Shown in pieces: positions 11,169 through 60,315 of a stretch of DNA of 64,000 nucleotides. Positions within the stretch are counted from its first letter, which is position 1, and each line of letters starts with the position of its first letter. Where the stretch lies: contig NW_027266319.1 in NCBI RefSeq assembly GCF_022045235.1, positions 2,914,001 through 2,978,000 of the forward strand, given 5' to 3'. This DNA comes from Haliotis cracherodii. Its lineage: Eukaryota. Made by a program: the position numbers and the translations under genes. The notes beneath the pieces were generated by a model, which saw only the letters and a list, made by a program, of their open reading frames with translations, made no database searches and was not told the origin of the DNA.

Positions 11169-11257
11169 TGTTCTTATCCAAGGACCGCAGACCGTAGGCC
11201 CGTTCCTCAAAGCGCTAATATTATTGTAATATCGCTGTGTGTACCATGACTTGGGAC

Positions 11258-11527
11258 ACGTGAAGATCCGGGGTAGAAAATGTCTTTAGTAGCCCATGCT
11301 TGACGCAAAAGGCAACTATGCTTGTCGTAAGAGGCGACTAACGGGATCAGGTGGTCAGGCTCGCTGACTTGGTTGATGGATGTCATCGTATTCCAATTGC
11401 GTAGATCGATGCTCATGATGTCAATCACTGGATTGTCTATTCCAGACACGATTGTTTACAGACCGCTGCATATAGCTGGACTATTATGGAATATTGCTGA
11501 GCGCCGCGTTAAACAACACGACAAAAC
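11258..11527 (+). mobile_element. Family C short element (no tRNA head, structured 5' end, shared SINE tail)
   Basis: High identity to 27192-27458. Confidence 0.85.
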
Positions 11528-11929: not shown

Positions 11930-12570
11930 TCAGCGTGGGATCGTTTAGCTCACACTCATTTTGACAAATTAAGACACAAGTTGAGAAACTTGCATGGCCA
12001 TCTCCAATAAAAACACGTTTCAGTGCATAATCATTACAGTGTTTTGTTCGTTGTTTGACGCCGAATTTAGCAATATTCCAAGATTCTACTTAAGCTTCAG
12101 GTATATCGATGATCTGATATCGTTCAGTAACCATCAAGTAGCTAATTCCCTTCCACTGATTTACCACCTGAACTAGAAATAAAGGAGACCCGTGAGGCCG
12201 TCTCATCTGTGTCATATTTAGATCTATGCATAAAGATTCACAGTGACAAAACACTCGCCACAAGACTGCATGGCAAGAGGGATGTCTTCAACTTTCCAAA
12301 AGACAGCTTCCCCTTCATGTCGAGCAATATTCCCGCAGCTCCAGCCCTTGGTGTCTACATTTCACAACTTTTGAGGTACAATCTAACAATGTCTTTCTAC
12401 CAAGACTTCAAAGAGCGCTATACAACTCAGAAGTTGTTTGATCAATGTTACAACATTCGAGGTCTCAGTTAAGCTTTCAAAAAAGATTATAGTAGACATG
12501 TGGAGGACATTTCCAAATTTGACGCGTCGTGGACAAAAATTATGTCCCATTCAATTCCCTATTTTGATTT
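11930..12570 (+). mobile_element. Penelope-like RT C-terminal remnant
   Basis: LSFRYIDDLISF, SYLDL, LHGKRDVFNFP..FPFMSSNIPAAPALGVYISQLLRY and KLFDQCY. Confidence 0.88.
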
Positions 12571-14267: not shown

Positions 14268-14690
14268 CTGTGCATTTATAATGCGCCAGATTCCATTCAC
14301 CAAGGGCTACACTATTATTACACCGGTCAATGCATCAGTGAGCACTCAATTTTCATTCTCAGCTCCCTGGGGAGTATATATCCCAAGCTGTCTGTGAGGC
14401 GCTAGAAGGTTAAGGTACAGAAGGTACACCGGGTACCCACTCACTGCTGGGTGAACAGAGGCACATTTCGAACGAAGTCACTTGCCTAAGGAGACACCAC
14501 ATGTGGTACATGTGCTTCAGTGTGGGGCAGGACCAAAGCCCTAGAAACTCCCAGGAGTCAAGCTGCTGAACGTGGTCACCCATCCAACTACTCTCCGAGA
14601 CCGACGTTGCTTAACTTCACTTAACGTGATATTGCTGGAATATTGCTAAAAGCGGCGTAAAACCTCACTTCGATCATTGTGGCCGAGTAA
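14268..14690 (-). mobile_element. 5S rRNA-headed SINE with a Deu/Nin-like core (family E), containing a family A tail fragment at ~14626-14669
   Basis: Minus strand gaagttaagcaacgtcgg..gtagttggatgggtgacc (5S internal control region), then ccttaggcaag..ctctgttcacccagcagt..gggtacc and ctccccagggagctgag. Confidence 0.7.
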
Positions 14691-19342: not shown

Positions 19343-20984
19343 ATTTCATACTTTGTAGTTTATTGGTCTCGCTGAATATCGTAACAATGGTAACTTAAAT
19401 TTGAAGTTCTCTGGTTTCGCTGAAGAACAATGCAACACTGTTATTTTGTGGGTATTTGTCGGCTCTCGGTCACAGAGTTTCCCCACTCATACTGAGTTAC
19501 GCAATGTAAAATAGTTCTATAAATATATACCATATTGACAAACGATATTTGGTATTAATCAAATCTTAAAAATAGGAAAACAGGAAAGTGAACAAAAACA
19601 TAAATATGACTCGATGGACCGAGGCGAGGTCACATAAGATTGTAAAGAGGTGCATTTCGAGTCGAACGGGAGCATGAGGATGAAATTTATACTTACTGCT
19701 GTTGAAAATGACGTTTATGGAACAGTTATGGAAAATACCCCGACGCATGAACCCTCCCATGGCATTAGCAAATTGGGAATATCACCGACTTATGAATGTG
19801 TTTGGATAATCGCAAACCAATTTGGACGATGTGGAATGGACTGGTGGGGATTGAACGGAGTGCTCTGAAACATGTGTGTTATGCGTCAGGGTATTTGGAG
19901 TTTGGGATTTGTCACGTGTGCTGTAATACTTTACTTGGCTGGTGTTTCTTGTCACCTGAGATGGACCTACTGTATGACCCGATGCCAGCTTCATTTCTGT
20001 GCCCCGTCATTCATCACGTGCCGCCGCTTCGCGGCCTAGAATGCACGGAGAATTTTATGGTCGGCCAACTCAGAAATCGGAAAAGTAATTCCGTCTACTG
20101 ATATTTTCTCGTCTACGATGACCAATCGGTAAAACAGGTAGGCAAGTCTTTTTGTTTTTTGTTTTTGTTTTAAAACAATTTAAGTTACTTGACCAGGAGC
20201 AGCCGCTTTGGTCCGTGTCAACGGCCACATCTGAGCAGGGTACAACATTGTTTTCATTGGTGCTAGATTCCTGTCATTTCCGAAAGCAAAGCATCAAAGT
20301 CAATATCACTCAATAAATCAATTTCGTTCACCTCAGTCATTTTACAGAATTCATTTTCATATTTGCGTTATATAGTTTTGAAAGATAGCCATTCCATATC
20401 CAAATCACCTGAAGGACAATCCATTTTGTTTCATCTAGCAGCTAGACGACATTAAACACCAGAAACAAAGCATTTATTTATTTTTGAATCAGATGAAATG
20501 TTACAAAACAAGGCAAAAATGCTAAATTAATTATATTGCTGATAAATGCAAGGATTAATAAGGAAACTAGAAATACGAGTTGATTGTAAACACCGATCGA
20601 GAATTCAGGGAAAACCTCGGAAAATAGTCTCGGCAAAAGTTCATACGATCAATTTCACAAAATAATTGTTCACATCGTATGAACTCCAAATATTAGATCA
20701 CGTAACTACCAGTTCAGCCAACCAGCATGAAAGAAACAGTGTAAACTTTAAAGTATGAAATTATATAACCAAATACCGAGGTAAGAAATACCATATTTAT
20801 TACTCAAACTCATTTTAAATTTCGCGCTTTTCCACACGCCGATGACGTTAGCAGCCATGTTGGCACGTAAAAATATAAAGCAGTCATAATGATTTTGTGC
20901 CACACAAACCAGAGGTTGATACTATGAGCCACGTCCCACTCATTCGGAGTACGATGTTATACAATCAACAAGCCATTATTGAAA

Positions 20985-22035
20985 GCCACGTCCTCGTCCG
21001 AAATGGTGTCTGGACGTATTGAACGTCAAGTCCTCGACCACAAGGGTGTGTGGACACGTATTGAACGTCAAGTCCTCGACCACAAGGGTGTCTGGACGTA
21101 TTGAACGTCAAGTCCTGGACGTCAAGAAATCCTCCACAAGGGTGTGTGGACACGTATTAAACGTCACGTCCTCGTCCACAAGGGCGCGTGGACACGTATT
21201 GAACGTCACGTCCTCGTCCACAAGGGCGTGTGGACACGTATTGAACGTCACGTCCTCGTTCACAAGGGTATGTGGGCACGTATTGAACGTCACGTCCTCG
21301 TTCACAAGGGCGCGTGGACACGTATTGAACGCCACGTCCTCGTCCACAAGGATGTGTGGACATGTATTGAACGTCACGTCTTCGTCCACAAAGGTGTGTG
21401 GACACGCATTGAACGTCACGTCCTCGTCCACAAGGGTGTTAGGACACGTATTGAACATCAAGTCCTCGACCACAAGGGTGTCTGGACGTATTGAACGTCA
21501 AGTCATGGACGTCAAGAACTCCTCCACAAGGGCGCGTGGACACGTATTGAACGTCACGTCCTCGTCCACAAGGGTGTGTGGACACGTATTGAACGTCACG
21601 TCCTCGTTCACAAGGGTATGTGGACACGTATTGAACGTCACGTCCTCGTTCACAAGGGCGTGTGGACACGTATTGAACGCCACGTCCTCGTCCACAAGGA
21701 TGTGTGGACACGTATTGAACGTCACGTCCTCGTCCACAAGGGTGTGTGGACACGTATTGAACGTCACGTCCTCGTCCACAAATGCGTGTGGACACGTTTT
21801 GAACGTCACGTCCTCGTCCACAAGGGTGTGTGGACACGTTTTGAACGTCACGTCCTCGTCCACAAGGGTATGTGGACACGTTTTGAACGTCACGTCCTCG
21901 CCCACAAGGGTGTGTGGACACGTATTGAACGTCACGTCCTCGTCCACAAGGGTGTGTGGACACGTATCGAACATCACGTCCTCGTCACGTCATCGTCCTC
22001 AAGGGTGTGTGGACACGTATAGTACGTCCCGTCCT
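20985..22035. repeat. 42-bp minisatellite with an internal hairpin in each unit
   Basis: Unit ttgaacgtcacgtcctcGTCCACAagggtgTGTGGACacgta, about 24 copies. Confidence 0.95.
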
Positions 22036-22149
22036 CTGGGAACTAAATTTATTTTAAAAAGTTTTAATAAAAAAATAGGCAAAGTGTCTAAGGTAGCAAC
22101 GAGGTAGCCCAATTGTTAGTGCACGAATGAATGATTCATTGAATGAATG

Positions 22150-25682: not shown

Positions 25683-25894
25683 CCAAAGAAGTAGGAGACA
25701 CTAGGAAATAACAGATTGTTACTGACATACAAGGAGCTATCGAGTGACGGCAGTGGATAGATAAGTAAAATAAGAACTAGGTGTAACATGACAATCAACA
25801 GAACATGTTGGCCGTGTATTGTAAGGGTGCAATGGTAAGCGCGGCATGGTCCGAACGTACGGGTGGCGTCATGTCCCAGGCGTGCTCTATAGTT

Positions 25895-26160
25895 TTTTTT
25901 GTTTTGTTTTTTGTTTAAGGCCATACTCAGCAATATTCCAGCTATATGACGGCAGTCTGTAAATAATCGAGTTGGGACCAGACAATCCAGTGTCTGACAT
26001 CATGAACATCAATCCACGCAATTGGAATACAATAACATGTATCAACCAAGTCAGCGAGCCTGACCACCCGGTCCCGTTAGTCGCCTTTCACAACAAGCAT
26101 TGTCGCCTTTTACGGCAAGAATGGGTTTCTGAAGACCTATTCTACCCCGGATCTTCACAG
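25895..26160 (-). mobile_element. Family C element
   Basis: Reverse complement of 27192-27458. Confidence 0.85.
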
Positions 26161-26777
26161 GTCTGTCCACAGACCAATGGTTAGGAGACATGGTCATTGC
26201 ACGCTGGTCTGCTGGTGGTGGTGGTCAGTTATGATGGGCATGACCTGTTATTTGGCCTCACGGACCACGTTATAAACCTGGGAGGCTGTGTTTCACATCG
26301 CAACGACTGGGCATAGAATGCGATAACACCTGCTAGGAAAACCTTCACGTGTTAAGAAAAATGCCGTTCTGAACTACTGAATGCAATGACTGTATATGCT
26401 ACGTAGAATTGCCACAGAATTTCATTTCTATTTTGCCGTTAATGTTTTATATTTACATTAAACTCGACTATTAAGTGAGTGAGTGAAATTAATGTTAAGT
26501 CCTGTCCCGTCACGCCAACTATCAAGGAACCATCAATTATCTTTGTGAAGCTGAAATTGAGATGAATACAGGCTGCTAGAGCTAAAACAGAGAGGAGAAT
26601 GAAACGGGATGGCTGTTGTATAAGATAACAGTTCCTGGGGTCTTTGAGACAGGCAGGTTGAGGCACAGGCAGAACACTACAGTAGCCAGGGCTCGCCGTC
26701 CTGTAGAATGGCCCGTCTTGACCCCACGGCATCACCGCCCGGTTTGCCTTCAGTGACCACGTCAGCATCTCAGATAA

Positions 26778-27050: not shown

Positions 27051-27191
27051 AACATATCTGACAGACCAGCTAGTAGTGAAGTAAAGTTTCACTGACAGCA
27101 GAGATGCGATCTGAATGTTGGTGATAGTCGGCTCAGCATGTGTATGAGGTCACGGTTCAGATCGAAATAAATATGGTTAAAATAGTGAAGT

Positions 27192-27458
27192 ACCGTGAAG
27201 ATCCGGGGTAGAATAGGTCTTCAGCAACCCATGCTTGCCGTAAAAGACGACTATGCTTGTCATAAGAGGCGACTAACGGGATCGGGTGGTCAGGCTCGCT
27301 GACTTGTTTGATGCATGTCACTGTATCCCAATTGCGTGGGTCGTTGCTCATGATGTCAATCACTGGATTGCCTGGTCCCGACTCGATTATTTACAGACCG
27401 CCGTCATATAGCTGGAATATTGCTGAGTGCGGCGTTAAACAACAAACAAACAAACAAA
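27192..27458 (+). mobile_element. Family C element with TSD
   Basis: ccgtgaagatccggggtagaatagg..., (caaa)n tail, flanking direct repeat aaaatagtgaag. Confidence 0.9.
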
Positions 27459-27610
27459 ATAGTGAAGCAACCTGTATTCTAATCAGCATATATGCAACTT
27501 CAGACAGTGATGTTGTTGCTTGTGTGTTGTGTAACGACGCAATCGTCAATGTTCCAGTTCCAGCAACATACATGACGACGGCCTGTAACCAATCGCGACA
27601 GACAATCCAG

Positions 27611-28000
27611 ACCCGTGAAGATTCAGGGGTAGAATAGGCCTTCAGCAACCCTTGCTTGCCGTAAAAGGTGACTAACGGGATCGGGTGGTCAGGCTCGCTG
27701 ACTTGGTTGATGCATGTCATCGATCCCAATTGCGTGGATCGATGCTCATAATTTTAATCACTGGATTGTTTGGTCCAGACTCGATTATTTACAGACCGCC
27801 GTCATATAGCTGGAATATTGCTGAGTGGGGCGTTAAACAACAAACCAACCAACCAACCAGACAATCCAGTGATTGACAGACAACTATCCACACAGTCGGT
27901 ATACGATGGCCATTTATTGGTCAAGTACCACCTGATCAATTTACTCGCTCTTTAGACAAGCATAGGTTGCTGGAGACCAATTCTAACCCGGAATCTTCAC
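27611..28000. mobile_element. Family C element (+, 27611-27857) joined tail-to-tail to a degenerate inverted copy
   Basis: Single-hairpin variant of the head. 27858-28000 matches the reverse complement of the body and head. Confidence 0.8.
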
Positions 28001-28614
28001 CTGCTGTTGTCATGTGCATGTACACATGCATGTATCCGATATTCTACATCCGTACTCTATTTCCCTGTACACTATCCAAGCTGATACGACAAGAAGATGA
28101 TCCATCACGGGAAGAAGACGCGGAGCTTACGTTGGCGAGAACGACTGTGGCCACTCTCTATAATAGTGCACAATGTCAAGGTCACGGACACAAAGCATTA
28201 TGATGTATATTGAGAAGTTGCATGATCTTGTCAATGAAATCCAAAAAATCCAAATGTATATGGAACGATATCAAAAATAGGTTTGATCCAAAAATATTTT
28301 GATTCTAAAATGAGAACAAAATAAATGATACAGTGTTTGTTTTTTATGTAATTGAACTGTTCTTAAATTTCACAATGGCTTTTTAACCGCCACTCATTCC
28401 TGCAGCAGTTTGTAATACGTCATCTGTGCCTGGGTATTTTCTTTTGCAAAAAATGGTTCAATGAACAGATATTTGATACTTATAGCAAGGGGAGAGTATG
28501 TCCCTCCTCTCGGAACAAAATAGATCTGAATAAATAGTACATAATTCATTTTGACATTAGCGCTTTCTAAATCCGGTCTTCGTGCAGTGGAATAACGGTA
28601 CATGTCACTCCACA

Positions 28615-36049: not shown

Positions 36050-36305
36050 TTCCGAGGTAGAAGATGTCTTCAGCAACCCATGCTTGCCGTAAAAGGCGAC
36101 TATGCTTGTCGTAAAAGGCGACTAACGGGATCGGGTGGTCAGGCTCGCTGACTTGGTTGAAGCATGTCATCGTATCCCAATTGCGTGGATCGATGCTCAT
36201 GGTATTAATCACTGGATTGTCTGGTCCAGACTCGAATATTTACAGACCGCCGTCATACAGCTGGAATATTGCTGTGTGCGGCGTGAAACAAACAACAAAA
36301 ACAAA
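36050..36305 (+). mobile_element. Family C element
   Basis: High identity to 27192-27458. Confidence 0.88.
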
Positions 36306-36748
36306 CATTAAACGACAAGGCTAATCCCATACTTCCCTGAGGGTTTATACAGAGCTCAAGTATGAAACCTTAAAGAAACGTAACAGACTGTGTCAGTAAC
36401 GCTCTATGGAATCTTTTACGGCAAATGTCAAAGACTGATTATTCTCTGGCACTGACAGTTTGAATTTATGTTTCCACTAGATGCTATCGGGTTCTCATTT
36501 ACACCTTGTGAAACACGTGCCACTTTCGTACAAAGTCACTTGCCTGAGGAAATATCAGGAAGCTTTACAACTGTACTGTACTTCACCCATTGACATTGCT
36601 TGTTTGGTGTGTGCACTCCGCACATGGCAACGTTACACATCGTCAATATGGAGTCAAAGTTCTCTTCTCCTGTTTACACCGAGAACAATCTATTTCTCCG
36701 TCCATGTTTCGGGAAAAACATATTTGGACGTTAGCATCATTCGCACTG

Positions 36749-40857: not shown

Positions 40858-41499
40858 CTCAGAGAACAGAAATCACGTAGTTTTATAGTGTTAACACAAA
40901 TACAGGACGGTTCGTGTATTTGGGTTTAACGCCCTTTTCACAAACAGAATTTCAGTTATATCACGGCGGCATGTTCATTGCAAAACCACTGTGGTTATGT
41001 GATGCAGGGTAACGTGCGAACGTCTAGTGGTATATGCAAATCAATGGTGAGCGAAGTTGCTTAACTGATTGGACCACCGCCGTGGTTTAGTGGTGGAGCG
41101 TCCGCCCGGAGAGCGGAAGATTGAACGATGTTATTTCCTCCCGAACGCATATTCACGATATTGTCGGAATCGTACACTAGACAATAGGGTTTTCGTAGGA
41201 TTATGTCAATGTTTTTGTCGTTTTTGTTGATACACAACACTTTTGTTTTATCGTTGTGAGTGAGTAATTGTTGTTTAACGCCGAATCAGAAATCTTGCAG
41301 CTATTAGCAATGGGTCTGTGATGTCACATGTGATGCGTTCATGATCGTCGATGTACACAACATACCTGATGTCCGTTTGTGTCGGACCAATCTATAATTG
41401 CTTGAAGATAAGTGATTCTTCATATATTAATCAACATGTATGATATTCATGTTTCTTTTGGCGGTGAGTATATAGAAGAAATAGACGGTCCTGTGGCGC

Positions 41500-45650: not shown

Positions 45651-45821
45651 GGGGCAGTCGGGTAGCCTAGTGGTTAAAGTGTTCGCTTGTCACGCCGAAG
45701 ACCCGGATTCGATTCCCGACATGGGTACAATGTGTGAAGCCCATTTCTGGTGTGCCCCGCCGTAATATTGCTGGAATATTGTTAAAAGCGGCGTATAACC
45801 ATACTCACTCACTCACTCACT
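45651..45821 (+). mobile_element. Family A SINE, near consensus, with TSD
   Basis: TSD ccaattacg at 45642-45650 and 45822-45830. The head resembles tRNA-Asp(GTC). Confidence 0.93.
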
Positions 45822-48841: not shown

Positions 48842-49014
48842 TGTGTGTGTAGTGTGTATGTGGTGTGTGTGAGTATGTCAGCCGATAGTCAAATTTAATT
48901 TTTCTCTGGCGTTTTCGCTCTATATTTGCAGAATACGTGCCATGCTTCTTCGGTGTCGTAGATCATTGCTCATGTCTTGAGTTACTGGTGTGCCTCGTCG
49001 TCTCCGTTGTTACA

Positions 49015-49205
49015 GATTCGGGGTAGAATAGGTCTTCAGCAACCCGTGCTTGTTGTAAATGGCGACTATGCTTGTCGTAAAAGGCGACTAACGGGATTGG
49101 GTGGTCAGGCTCGCTGACTTAGTTGATGCATGTCATCGATCCCAATTACGTGGATCGATGCTCATGATGTCAATCACTGGATTGTCTGGACCAGACTCGA
49201 TTATT
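49015..49205 (+). mobile_element. Family C element, 3'-truncated
   Basis: Matches 27200-27390. Confidence 0.85.
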
Positions 49206-52159: not shown

Positions 52160-52924
52160 CAATCAGATATACTTTCACCGTCAGCTTGCTCTATGACAGA
52201 AATACTAACAACGCATTGAGGAAAACATATATTTTTTAAACCTCGGCGGGATGCGAATCTGCAATCACTTGCTTTGTAGTCCTTTACGCTACCACCTGTG
52301 CTACAAAGACTGTTCTCACAATTTTCCCTAGTCGCCCAAAACCGAGTTTGGTTAAGTTGTACATTTTATGTTGATATTGTACCAAGTTCGGTGTAAGTCC
52401 TGGTGGTATATACAATGCTCGTGAATCTGATTTGCACATCTACTTTCAATATATATGATACGTCTTATCCATATTTGACTTATTGCCTAATGCTATACAG
52501 TTTATAGAAACGTTTACACATGTTCAAATTGTAAAAATGTTTAAAATCTAAAAATAATTTGTGGGGGATGTTGTGTCTAGGTGGTTTTCAGGCTGTGAGG
52601 CGATAGCTCATTTCAGGTGTTGAGTAAGTGAGTATGGTTTTACGCCGCTTTTAGCAATATTCTAGCAATATCACGGCGGGGGACACCAGAAATGGGCTTC
52701 ACACATTGTACCCATGTCGGGAATCGAACCCGGGTCTTCGGCGTGACGAGCGAACGCTTTAACCACTAGGATACCCGACCGCCCCTTCAGGTGTTGAGAC
52801 CTGTATACATTTAGAAAGAACACACCAGATGTGTTTTCCTTTTAGGATTTAAACACAATCCTCATCCTGTTTACACCTGAACACGCTTGTCTGTGTTTAA
52901 ATTGTAAAAATATTGTTTACAGTG
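52160..52924. mobile_element. Repeat copy 2 (homologous to 49672-50392), interrupted by a family A SINE
   Basis: Shared cgctaccacctgtgcta, tgtaccaagttcg, cgtgaatctgatttg and gtttacagtg. Confidence 0.6.
52625..52785 (-). mobile_element. Family A SINE, consensus-like, with a 13-bp TSD
   Basis: TSD ttcaggtgttgag at 52612-52624 and 52786-52798. Confidence 0.95.
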
Positions 52925-54075: not shown

Positions 54076-54358
54076 TGTGTGTGTGTGTGAGTTTGGTTTA
54101 ACGCCGCTTTTAACAGTATTCCAGTTATATCGCGGCGTGTCAGCTTAATGTGGGAGGAAAGCCCGAAGTGATGCAGGTTTCAGACGTTTACCACTTCGGT
54201 GAAACCCACGAGCACGGGTATGGTACTGACAAACCTAGAAACATAATCGGGGCGAACCGGGATTCGAACCCACAATCATAGGTTTCTGGCGTGCCCAAGG
54301 GACGCAACTCTGCACAGCGAATCGCGGCGCCTTAGACGACTGGGCCACCCGTGCCCCC
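54076..54358 (-). mobile_element. tRNA-Leu-like SINE (family B) with a 12-bp TSD
   Basis: TSD cagtacattata at 54064-54075 and 54359-54370. Confidence 0.95.
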
Positions 54359-58000: not shown

Positions 58001-60082
58001 AACCGAACAGGGTAGTACATTTACTCAAACCAGCAATATCTATCTCTTCGTACGAATTTTTATGAAATTTGAAAATTGGGCAATACCCCACAATACTGAC
58101 GGAGAATTTTCAGCATTGCAAAATTAGGATCTTGGTGCGTATTTGTGGAAGCTTATATCAATACACTCATAAACCCCCGCAAAGAGTCTACATCAGCTAA
58201 ATATAATTCTATGAAATGTTTAGTCAGTGATATTATGATGTGCACTGTACATCAGCTGAGTTGGACCCCATCAGAAGATACCCTACATATATCACAGTGA
58301 AAGGTAATAGACAACGAGGCTCCCACGCGAAACGTGTCATTTGACATTGACCGTGATGATGGTGATTGTCATCGATACGACTTGAGAGCGAGAATCCACG
58401 TGGCTGTGAGGAGATCACGTTTTGAATCACACGTGGCTTCGGTTAACTGTCAACAGACACTACGTCACAAAGAGCTGTGACTTAATGATACCAATGTATG
58501 CAGCTGACGTGATGTGTGCAGTGTGTCCGAAATAAGTTTGTTAATGAGAATCATTCACATTTCAGATATATCTTGGTCGCTCGTATTACCAAATGTGGAA
58601 TATGGAAAGAGATTCGTTTCATTACGTTGTTCAACAACGAATTGGACATCATGTGTCGAGTATGTTCACAAAATATAACCACAAAAGTATTTAGCTTGAA
58701 TTCGGTGTCTACTCAGTGTGCCGTAAAAAGTATTCAACAACGTGGTATTTAAATGCACACGACATACTACAAAACAAGTAGTTTTCCTACGTTATTAGAA
58801 AGCTGACGTTTGTTTTGTTTTATATTCTCATATTAAGACGTGCATTTCTGCTAATTCTAGGCTGACATATTACAGGAACAATGTTGACTTTTATGACACA
58901 GGTTTCACTAGTTGTAAACTCTCAAAAGACAATTATGATTTGATTTCCGAAAATGCATAATAATTATTAATATATTGATCATTGGGTAAAATGAACATCG
59001 ACGTGGCTTAGATTTGGCTGAAGTCACGCGAATCCCACGCGATCATTACCCACCAAGGATACACTGTCCATTCCATGTTATGTTGAAGTTATAGGTCATT
59101 TTAAGGAGAAGTGTAACTAGACACTCGTTACAGCAAAATACTGCCTACTTAGACATACAGCCTGAAATTGAATGAATAAAAATGAATTTTCAGATATCAA
59201 ATTATTTACATTTAGCATTTACTGATTTTGTAGAAAATAAACACGATATGTTATTTTTGAAATACATCTGCTGCGTTCAAATGCTGCTTACAGGAAACAG
59301 GAGCGTTCAATTATTGACCCTTAATGCCACCCCAGACATTTCATAGTATACAATCAAAAGAATTTAATGAATATGACGCGTCGTGTGTTAACATGAGTGA
59401 GTGAGTATGATTTTACGGCGCTTTTAGCAATATTCCAGCAACATCACTGCTCACTGCTCAGCTGACACAGGATTGTCAGGTCCAGCCTCCATTGTTTACC
59501 GGTCACCGTCGTATGGCTAAAGTGAGTGAGTGAGTGAGTATGGTTTTACTCTGCTTTTAGCAATATTCCAGCAATATCACGGCGTGCGGGAGATTGCTGA
59601 GTCAGGCATTATAAATTGAACAAGGAAACAGACACGTACATTTTTCATGAGAATTGTGTGAGTGACGGGTACTACCGGAAGGGCAGGGAATGCTTATCCT
59701 GTCGCGAATATCTGTCATCATTCCCTTTCAGTCATCCATTCACATAATTGTCATCACTCTTAGGCCGTTCGTCCCATTGAATCTAATTCAGCAGATAATC
59801 CAGATTGATTATTTTCTGGCGTTGACGTATGACTTTACATATTCGTCATAATAATCCTTTATGAGTATCTAAATAACAGCGACCAAATTCAAGAATCTCT
59901 ATTTGCAAGTGATTCGTTAATACATGCTCATGGTATTGTCGGAATCGGCTCTGTTTTTAGCAGAAATTTCTTATGATTTGAAATGGTATGTCGCTTTTAA
60001 TTACAATAAGAAAATAGCTGTAGAAATCAAAGATTCTATAAACAGACGAAATTTTGGAACAATTACTAGAACCATCAAGACC

Positions 60083-60315
60083 AGTTGTTCAACGCCGCAT
60101 TCAGCCATATTCCAGATATATGACGGCGGTCTGTACCAGACAATCAAGAGATTGATATCATTAGCATTTATCTAATTGGTATACAATGGCATGCACCTAC
60201 CAAGTGAGCGAGCCTTACCACCTGATCGCGTTAGTCGCCTCTTACGATGAGCAAAGTCGCCTCTTACGATAAGCATAGTCGCCTCTTACGATAAGCATAG
60301 TAGCCTCTTACGACA
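60083..60315 (-). mobile_element. Family C element with the 23-bp head unit amplified 3-4 times
   Basis: Repeated tagtcgcctcttacgataagca. Confidence 0.8.

Follow-up and report, generated by a model that had tools for sequence, protein, structure and literature searches.

The window, which is the whole 64,000-nt stretch of Haliotis cracherodii DNA analysed here, holds a dispersed repeat of 248-267 bp with TSDs and a (CAAA/CCAA)n tail, a repeat that an earlier sequence-only reading of this DNA had noticed. BLAST and a covariance model found nine copies or fragments of the repeat in the window (Table 1), and the head of the element is kept in four of them (11255+, 26163-, 27191+ and 27610+). The sequence-only reading had flagged 27192..27857 and counted at least eight copies. 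The repeat is real, and the flagged interval contains two separate copies, 27191-27455 and 27610-27857, each with a 12-nt TSD. Eight of the nine coordinates then listed are copies; what lies at 27858 is just the 3' TSD belonging to the copy at 27610. Pfam yielded no credible gene among seven ORFs of the window. A repetitive frame of 374 codons (20983-22107), open in several frames and with spurious Pfam hits only, is likely a minisatellite.

Table 1. Repeat copies in the window, with the parts of the copy at 27610
Feature	Position	Strand
Full-length SINE copy, single core; P4 with a C-A mismatch	27610..27857	+
5' TSD of the 27610 copy, ending in a G that is also the element's first base	27599..27610	+
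3' TSD of the 27610 copy	27858..27869	+
Domain 1 of the 27610 copy, predicted H-type pseudoknot	27612..27644	+
S1 in the 27610 copy	27612-27615 pairing about 27625-27628	+
S2 in the 27610 copy	27616-27623 pairing 27637-27644	+
Conserved AGAAU linker in the 27610 copy	27631-27635	+
Domain 2 of the 27610 copy	27645..27679	+
GCA junction of the 27610 copy; possible 3-bp pairing to UGC at 27653-27655	27645-27647	+
P3 in the 27610 copy	27649-27651 pairing 27677-27679	+
Conserved 23-nt core of the 27610 copy, including hairpin P4	27653-27675	+
Element body of the 27610 copy; single B-box-like 9-mer without an A box	27680..27795	+
3' stem-loop, then (CAAA/CCAA)n tail, of the 27610 copy	27796..27857	+
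Full-length SINE copy, doubled core; TSD 27179-27190 / 27456-27467	27191..27455	+
Full-length SINE copy, doubled core	11255..11522	+
Full-length SINE copy, doubled core	25893..26163	-
Older fragment, head only	27931..28007	-
5'-truncated SINE copy, doubled core	36050..36307	+
SINE copy truncated at both ends	49014..49205	+
Degenerate SINE copy, about 71% identity	51939..52108	+
5'-truncated SINE copy, four tandem core units	60084..60314	-

The repeat is a non-autonomous retroposon, likely of a kind already known, the LP-SINE. LP-SINEs have been known from gastropod and bivalve molluscs since Matetovici et al. 2016, and those described in the relevant part of that paper include 255-bp families of Haliotis (PMC4758252). 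The same passages describe a head of about 70 bp that is common to Nimb-17_LMi, I-3_DR and RTE-9_CPB and can stand in for the tRNA head of a SINE; the head is presumed there to be a promoter, the promoter-ribozyme Pr77 is cited as a parallel, and these passages offer no structure (PMC4758252). The elements of the window are likewise short, TSD-flanked and closed by terminal tandem repeats. They share their head with Nimb-type (L080, L084, L106-L125) and RTE-type (L038, L054, L068) ORFs, and Pan_3 as given in PMC4758252 carries the same linker and core. Before the tail, the window copies read AATATT, compared with AATATA or ACTAAA in the LP-SINEs described there (PMC4758252).

A SINE derived from tRNA, 5S or 7SL was considered and rejected, since no A- and B-box-bearing head derived from a Pol III RNA was found in the element. 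An Rfam scan found no match to tRNA, 5S or 7SL in the element, which bears out the absence of a Pol III head noticed in the sequence-only reading; the same scan detected a tRNA head in a different SINE, at 45656. That tRNA-derived SINE (45656-45820) has a 3' stem-loop of the same kind, together with a Nimb-like (CTCA)n tail, and further tRNA-SINE tails lie at 12043-12080, 14625-14663, 41268-41304, 52637-52679, 54082-54137 and 59543-59584. The 3' stem-loop of the head-bearing SINE resembles that of Nimb-type LINEs and that of the tRNA-SINE. The exact LINE partner of the head-bearing SINE was not found: two Nimb protein searches led to a single HDV-headed group whose members, as far as examined, end in (CTCA)n rather than (CAAA/CCAA)n, and a search of this genome for an RTE-type partner gave only 12 weak matches, with the module in none of the loci fetched. 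The tRNA-derived SINE at 45656 is a better match to this Nimb group than the head-bearing SINE is.

Fold and 5' ends of the head

The first ~80 bases of the SINE are predicted to form an RNA structure in which an H-type pseudoknot precedes a closed, conserved core. The order of the predicted parts is S1, S2, an optional hairpin and an AGAAU linker, followed by P3, which closes the conserved core with its hairpin P4. Scans for the exact core returned 44 stretches from metagenomes, 9 from the prokaryote collection and 9 from viruses. Of 68 module instances, two were without upstream sequence and the remainder made up 37 families, four of which, having no AGAAU-like linker, were left out, so that 33 families were tested. 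In an alignment-free test, the 5' strand of each family was compared with its own or another family's 3' strand. S2 and P3 covary over the 33 families, with none of 20,000 permutations reaching the observed score for either helix. Covariation, which had been named as a check on the fold, was thus found for these two helices.

A MAFFT alignment of 28 sequences gave a similar picture for S2, although this alignment, made of 26 of the 33 families picked for a clear fold and two more, leans towards the fold. In it, S2 is 85% paired with two-sided changes in seven of eight pairs; S1 is 71% paired with a two-sided change in two of four pairs, a modest covariation; P3 is 69% paired; and P4 is invariant. 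The covariation score was 0.399, compared with 0.172 for shuffled and at most 0.183 for slid alignments. Since the core served as the search pattern, its invariance is in part a product of the selection.

The sequence-only reading had also drawn a pseudoknotted head. It was right that the head is structured and pseudoknotted, and its stem UGAAGAU/GUCUUCA has covariation support, but the register of the knot was wrong. The long-range CCCGU/ACGGG helix is unsupported (4138 of 20,000 permutations reach the observed score; 53% of cells paired in the 28-sequence alignment), as is the GGGU/ACCC pairing (9010 of 20,000 permutations; 52-60% of cells). The pairings with support instead join CCCG to the CGGG that immediately follows the first strand of the stem, and ACCC to the G-run after the core. 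The hairpin GUCG/CGAC, drawn in the same reading, is invariant and hence offers no covariation for or against it. A third short helix, GYA/UGC, is possible and would give a second pseudoknot; it is complementary in 26 of the 33 families and shows no covariation (6284 of 20,000 permutations), its variation being one-sided (U-G/C-G).

The module matched no Rfam family, either in a scan of 341 nt at E up to 10 or in six virus tails at E up to 5. Several ribozyme classes were considered and set aside. For an HDV-like ribozyme there was no Rfam match to the module, as against E=0.002 for the ribozyme of the Nimb-type LINEs described below, and P3, L3, P1.1 and the catalytic C in J4/2 are absent from the module's strand order. 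Hammerhead, twister, pistol, hatchet and twister-sister also gave no Rfam match, and mapping HDV, circularly permuted HDV, twister and pistol onto the module by hand produced partial likenesses, none complete. The scan agrees with the sequence-only reading, in which the head fitted no HDV, hammerhead or pistol descriptor.

A first look at the whole genome gave at least 3043 candidates for the head and at least 1684 for the 3' half of the SINE. Among 30 copies picked through the 3' half alone, 16 start exactly at the GA before CCCG, another six extend to the first stem but have different letters ahead of it, and eight are truncated. The observation that full-length copies start at nearly the same base therefore extends genome-wide, with sharp 5' ends (16/30 exact, 22/30 near); in another count, the G two bases ahead of CCCG was the start in 24 of 30. 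In other module families, G stands at the first S1 pair in all ten copies of one, and other letters stand there in two more. The 5' end tracks the structure rather than a fixed base.

The core (22-23 nt) is tandemly doubled in 20 of the 30 sampled SINE copies, including the 27191 copy, a feature absent from the sequence-only reading. P4 is intact in the 3' unit of 16 of these 20 copies and in the 5' unit of one, counts that come from descendants of few source copies and not from independent events. Three small-RNA runs of a related organism contained 3, 18 and 1 reads on the SINE, with no pile-up at its start, and 0, 155 and 2 reads on the 5' end of Nimb-type LINEs, nearly all antisense. In one run, 127 antisense reads of about 31 nt, which is piRNA size, share one start over the Nimb module (L109:1409-1439); these may be copies of one molecule.

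The module in LINEs and RNA viruses

The sequence-only reading mentioned a similar motif at the 5' ends of some non-LTR elements, and the same module does occur at the 5' ends of RTE-type and Nimb-type LINEs, from which the SINE has borrowed its head. In the Nimb-type LINEs of this genome it lies directly behind a 57-nt HDV-like ribozyme (for example L109:1346-1402), which has an Rfam E of 0.002, below the gathering score, and all canonical parts by eye. The Nimb set consisted of 20 LINEs taken whole (L106-L125) and 60 loci found through the module plus downstream UTR or ORF1 (L165-L194, L198-L227). Of 69 distinct module-bearing Nimb places, 67 start at G1 of the ribozyme, two start inside the ribozyme, and none starts at the module. 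The group is young and abundant, with intact ORFs (APE, RT, RNase H). Its matches cluster on few contigs, and some copies are apparently inserted into or beside other Nimb copies (L107, L113, L117, L118, L122, 3' flanks). Other module-bearing families in this genome may have been missed by these searches.

Among 15 Nimb elements the module is 94-95% identical, as are the next 180 nt, compared with about 60% at the start of ORF1; over the first 300 nt, pairwise identity is 0.89-0.99, against 0.52-0.64 in the ORF1 start. This conservation reflects either strong constraint or exchange of 5' ends between lineages, and the 180 nt behind the module may hold more structure. One HDV-bearing Nimb subfamily differs from others by a compensatory double change in S2. 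At two to three positions the core of the Nimb module departs from the cores of all other families, and the module of these HDV-bearing elements may be partly relaxed.

Elsewhere, the module stands ahead of RTE-type single ORFs (L038, L054, L068), of Nimb-type ORFs (L080, L084) and of a 981-aa RT frame without an APE hit in Pfam (L053), where it directly follows an (AAT)n run; the N-terminus of that frame is, we presume from its look, R4/Dong-like. Two diverged, intact modules lie in tandem before the RTE-type ORF of L038. In L069, a 74-nt module monomer forms three and a half repeats inside a longer tandem unit. Several contigs that bear the module and LINE ORFs come from bacterial genome records (L077, L078, L080-L084) and are likely host DNA in those assemblies. 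Core-only matches in L130/L134 and L085 were treated as chance.

Six distinct contigs of RNA-virus-like character also contain the module, always on the coding strand and past the last long ORF. Pfam identified RdRP_4, RdRP_3, A21 capsid, VNN capsid and S-domain capsid in these contigs, one of which had no hit. The tails that bear the module are 137-280 nt long as assembled, and that of L126 has tandem modules. In two viruses, no more than about 12 nt separate the stop codon from the start of the module. In L133 and L249 the module ends 30 nt and 17 nt, respectively, from the contig end; L249, which was outside the training set of the covariance model, scores 40.9 bits. With a looser pattern, the fold is present in eight of 15 viral hits, namely seven contigs of the six viruses (L132 being counted by its near identity to L127) and one DNA virus of 212 kb; the seven hits without the fold were treated as chance. 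In the 212-kb contig (L074:2959-3033) the module, with a weak P3, lies between two ORFs and 150 nt before the next one, and was probably picked up from a host element.

Candidate functions of the module

The covariation of S2 and P3, the two-sided changes in S2 and the occurrence in RNA viruses indicate that the module acts as RNA. This bears on the published suggestion that the head works chiefly as DNA, as an internal Pol II promoter, with the fold secondary, which we consider highly unlikely. The position of the head and its swapping between elements speak for a promoter (as far as described in PMC4758252), and so does Pr77, a single 77-nt stretch that is both promoter and RNA device in the account consulted (PMC3383444). 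The compensatory stem changes and the RNA-virus-like tails require a function in RNA, however, and none of the 69 Nimb copies starts at the module. Tandem head repeats, which are typical of LINE promoters, were counted in favour of a promoter.

The sequence-only reading proposed a self-cleaving or promoter RNA that defines the 5' end. Definition of the 5' end by the module is likely, but self-cleavage and a +1 promoter are disfavoured by the Nimb starts, the tandem modules and the viral 3' tails. A self-cleaving class not yet described, cutting just 5' of S1, is accordingly an unlikely explanation. It would fit the location, the 5' end of retrotransposons, where HDV, twister and hammerhead ribozymes also occur, as well as the sharp G start of the SINE and the highly conserved core. 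The 74-nt tandem monomer array would suit a ribozyme too, and the UTRs of linear RNA viruses, mostly 5' and exceptionally 3', also hold ribozymes according to the portion consulted of PMC13725137. No Nimb copy starts at the module despite its intact fold, however, and where two intact modules stand one behind the other ahead of an RTE-type ORF, cleavage by the second would remove the first. The six viruses all have the module in their 3' tails, the first bases vary between families, and a 341-nt scan gave no Rfam ribozyme match where a like scan detects the HDV-like ribozyme of the Nimbs. If the module were a ribozyme or +1 promoter, the Nimb and tandem copies would have to be dead. The core substitutions in HDV-bearing Nimbs could mean such inactivation, and since the Nimb core may be relaxed, the argument from Nimbs against self-cleavage or a +1 promoter is weakened.

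Alternatively, the module might bind a conserved host factor and promote cap-independent translation or recruit ribosomes, acting as a 3' enhancer in viruses, allowing uncapped translation of LINEs, and keeping the SINE near the ribosomes that make LINE protein. This is somewhat unlikely as the main explanation. The module lies right behind an HDV-like ribozyme, whose product is uncapped, and in the view put forward in the part consulted of PMC3383444, LINE RNA that lacks a cap should depend on an element of this sort. Further support comes from the near-terminal position in some virus tails, from the loop sequence that is invariant across unrelated elements, and from the module 150 nt before an ORF in the 212-kb DNA-virus contig. 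A translation element alone leaves unexplained why SINEs start at the module's first bases. It equally leaves unexplained the tRNA head's replacement: because the head swaps for a tRNA head in a SINE, at least in the elements described in PMC4758252, it must give rise to a discrete RNA, something not expected of a pure translation element.

Our tentative preference, which we hold to be possible and stop short of calling probable, is that the head is an xrRNA-like roadblock to 5'-to-3' exoribonucleases. The SINE would be transcribed from host promoters, and a 5'-to-3' exonuclease would trim the read-through transcript as far as the first base pair of the module and stall there, at the base of S1. 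Trimming would leave a unit-length, protected SINE RNA with neither a Pol III head nor a ribozyme, which a Nimb-type reverse transcriptase could copy by reading the 3' stem-loop. The conserved core may have a second job, that of binding some host factor, such as one needed for cap-independent translation in LINEs and viruses; its strongly conserved loop bases fit factor binding or catalysis equally well. A translation element and a roadblock are compatible, and both can hold.

We favour the roadblock because it fits the exact 5' ends of SINEs and LINEs that bear the module alone, the retention of the module behind a ribozyme, the tandem heads and the starts of viral 3' tails. As in xrRNAs defined by function, a pseudoknot adjoins the presumed protected 5' end. 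Tandem xrRNAs occur in flaviviruses. 5'-hydroxyl ends are not attacked by Xrn1, and a roadblock would leave no trace in Nimbs because the ribozyme has already made such an end. Where the module lies near the contig end (L133, L249), the protected RNA would be hardly longer than the module itself, which fits a 3'-terminal translation or replication element too. There is a slight chance that some other explanation applies altogether.

More broadly, and with greater reserve, the module could be a new nuclease-resistant fold that has been swapped among RNA viruses and several retrotransposon clades, with host exonucleases carving retroposons that have neither promoter nor ribozyme out of host transcripts. 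If correct, the roadblock would add a third way in which a retroelement can obtain its 5' end, of interest for non-LTR elements without a known promoter or ribozyme, and would place an xrRNA in very many copies in animal genomes; a 2021 review, in the part consulted, regards xrRNAs among cellular RNAs as yet to be discovered (PMC8374639). Even if it is a ribozyme or a translation element, the module matches no Rfam family. A compact, covarying module that recurs in RTE-type, Nimb-type and other LINEs, in SINEs and in unrelated RNA viruses must have some portable RNA function, and the HDV-plus-module LINE is a natural built-in control within this genome.

Comparison with known RNA systems

A search of the literature other than subscription journals and repeat-database reports turned up no account of the fold, of its spread to RNA viruses or of the HDV-plus-module LINE; for a ribozyme together with Nimb, only PMC4758252 was found. 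Plant RNA viruses have 3' cap-independent translation enhancers and upstream pseudoknot domains that, like the module, combine a place in the 3' UTR with conserved loops and pseudoknots. The Rfam scan of the six virus tails gave no sequence or Rfam match to such enhancers, and we know of no 3' cap-independent translation enhancer at retrotransposon 5' ends.

Further parallels are found among the class 3 xrRNAs of plant viruses (ST9a, dianthovirus, polerovirus), in which, as far as described in the sections consulted, a hairpin loop pairs with a downstream strand (PMC12397905, PMC8374639). These xrRNAs stop Xrn1 at the base of P1 (PMC12397905), and the usual place of xrRNAs is the start of the viral 3' UTR (PMC8374639). 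The module likewise stands at the start of viral 3' tails, and its protected RNA is predicted to end at the base of the first stem. In contrast to class 3 as described in those sections, the module has no P2, J1/2 bulge or T-loop-like L2B, is followed by an extra conserved domain, and is found in retrotransposons, with a resistance that is putative. The structures of class 1 (a three-way junction) and class 3 (P1, J1/2, P2, L2B, PK) were both considered for the module and rejected, and neither gave an Rfam match.

HDV-like ribozymes at LINE 5' ends (R2, and Pr77 of L1Tc/NARTc) are also mobile 5' modules in unrelated LINEs and their short derivatives, in the account consulted (PMC3383444). The strand order of S1 and S2 is that of HDV P1 and P2. 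The knot differs from HDV in the missing parts listed above, and in Nimbs a true HDV-like ribozyme lies upstream of it.

The published elements most like the SINE itself are the LP-SINEs Hdi_LP and Hmi_LP, which at about 255 bp, compared with 248-267 bp here, also have TSDs, a short tandem tail and no Pol III head in their description (PMC4758252). Beyond what is described there for LP-SINEs, the elements analysed here add a covarying pseudoknot, an occurrence in RNA viruses, LINEs that carry an HDV-like ribozyme plus the module, and a doubled core.
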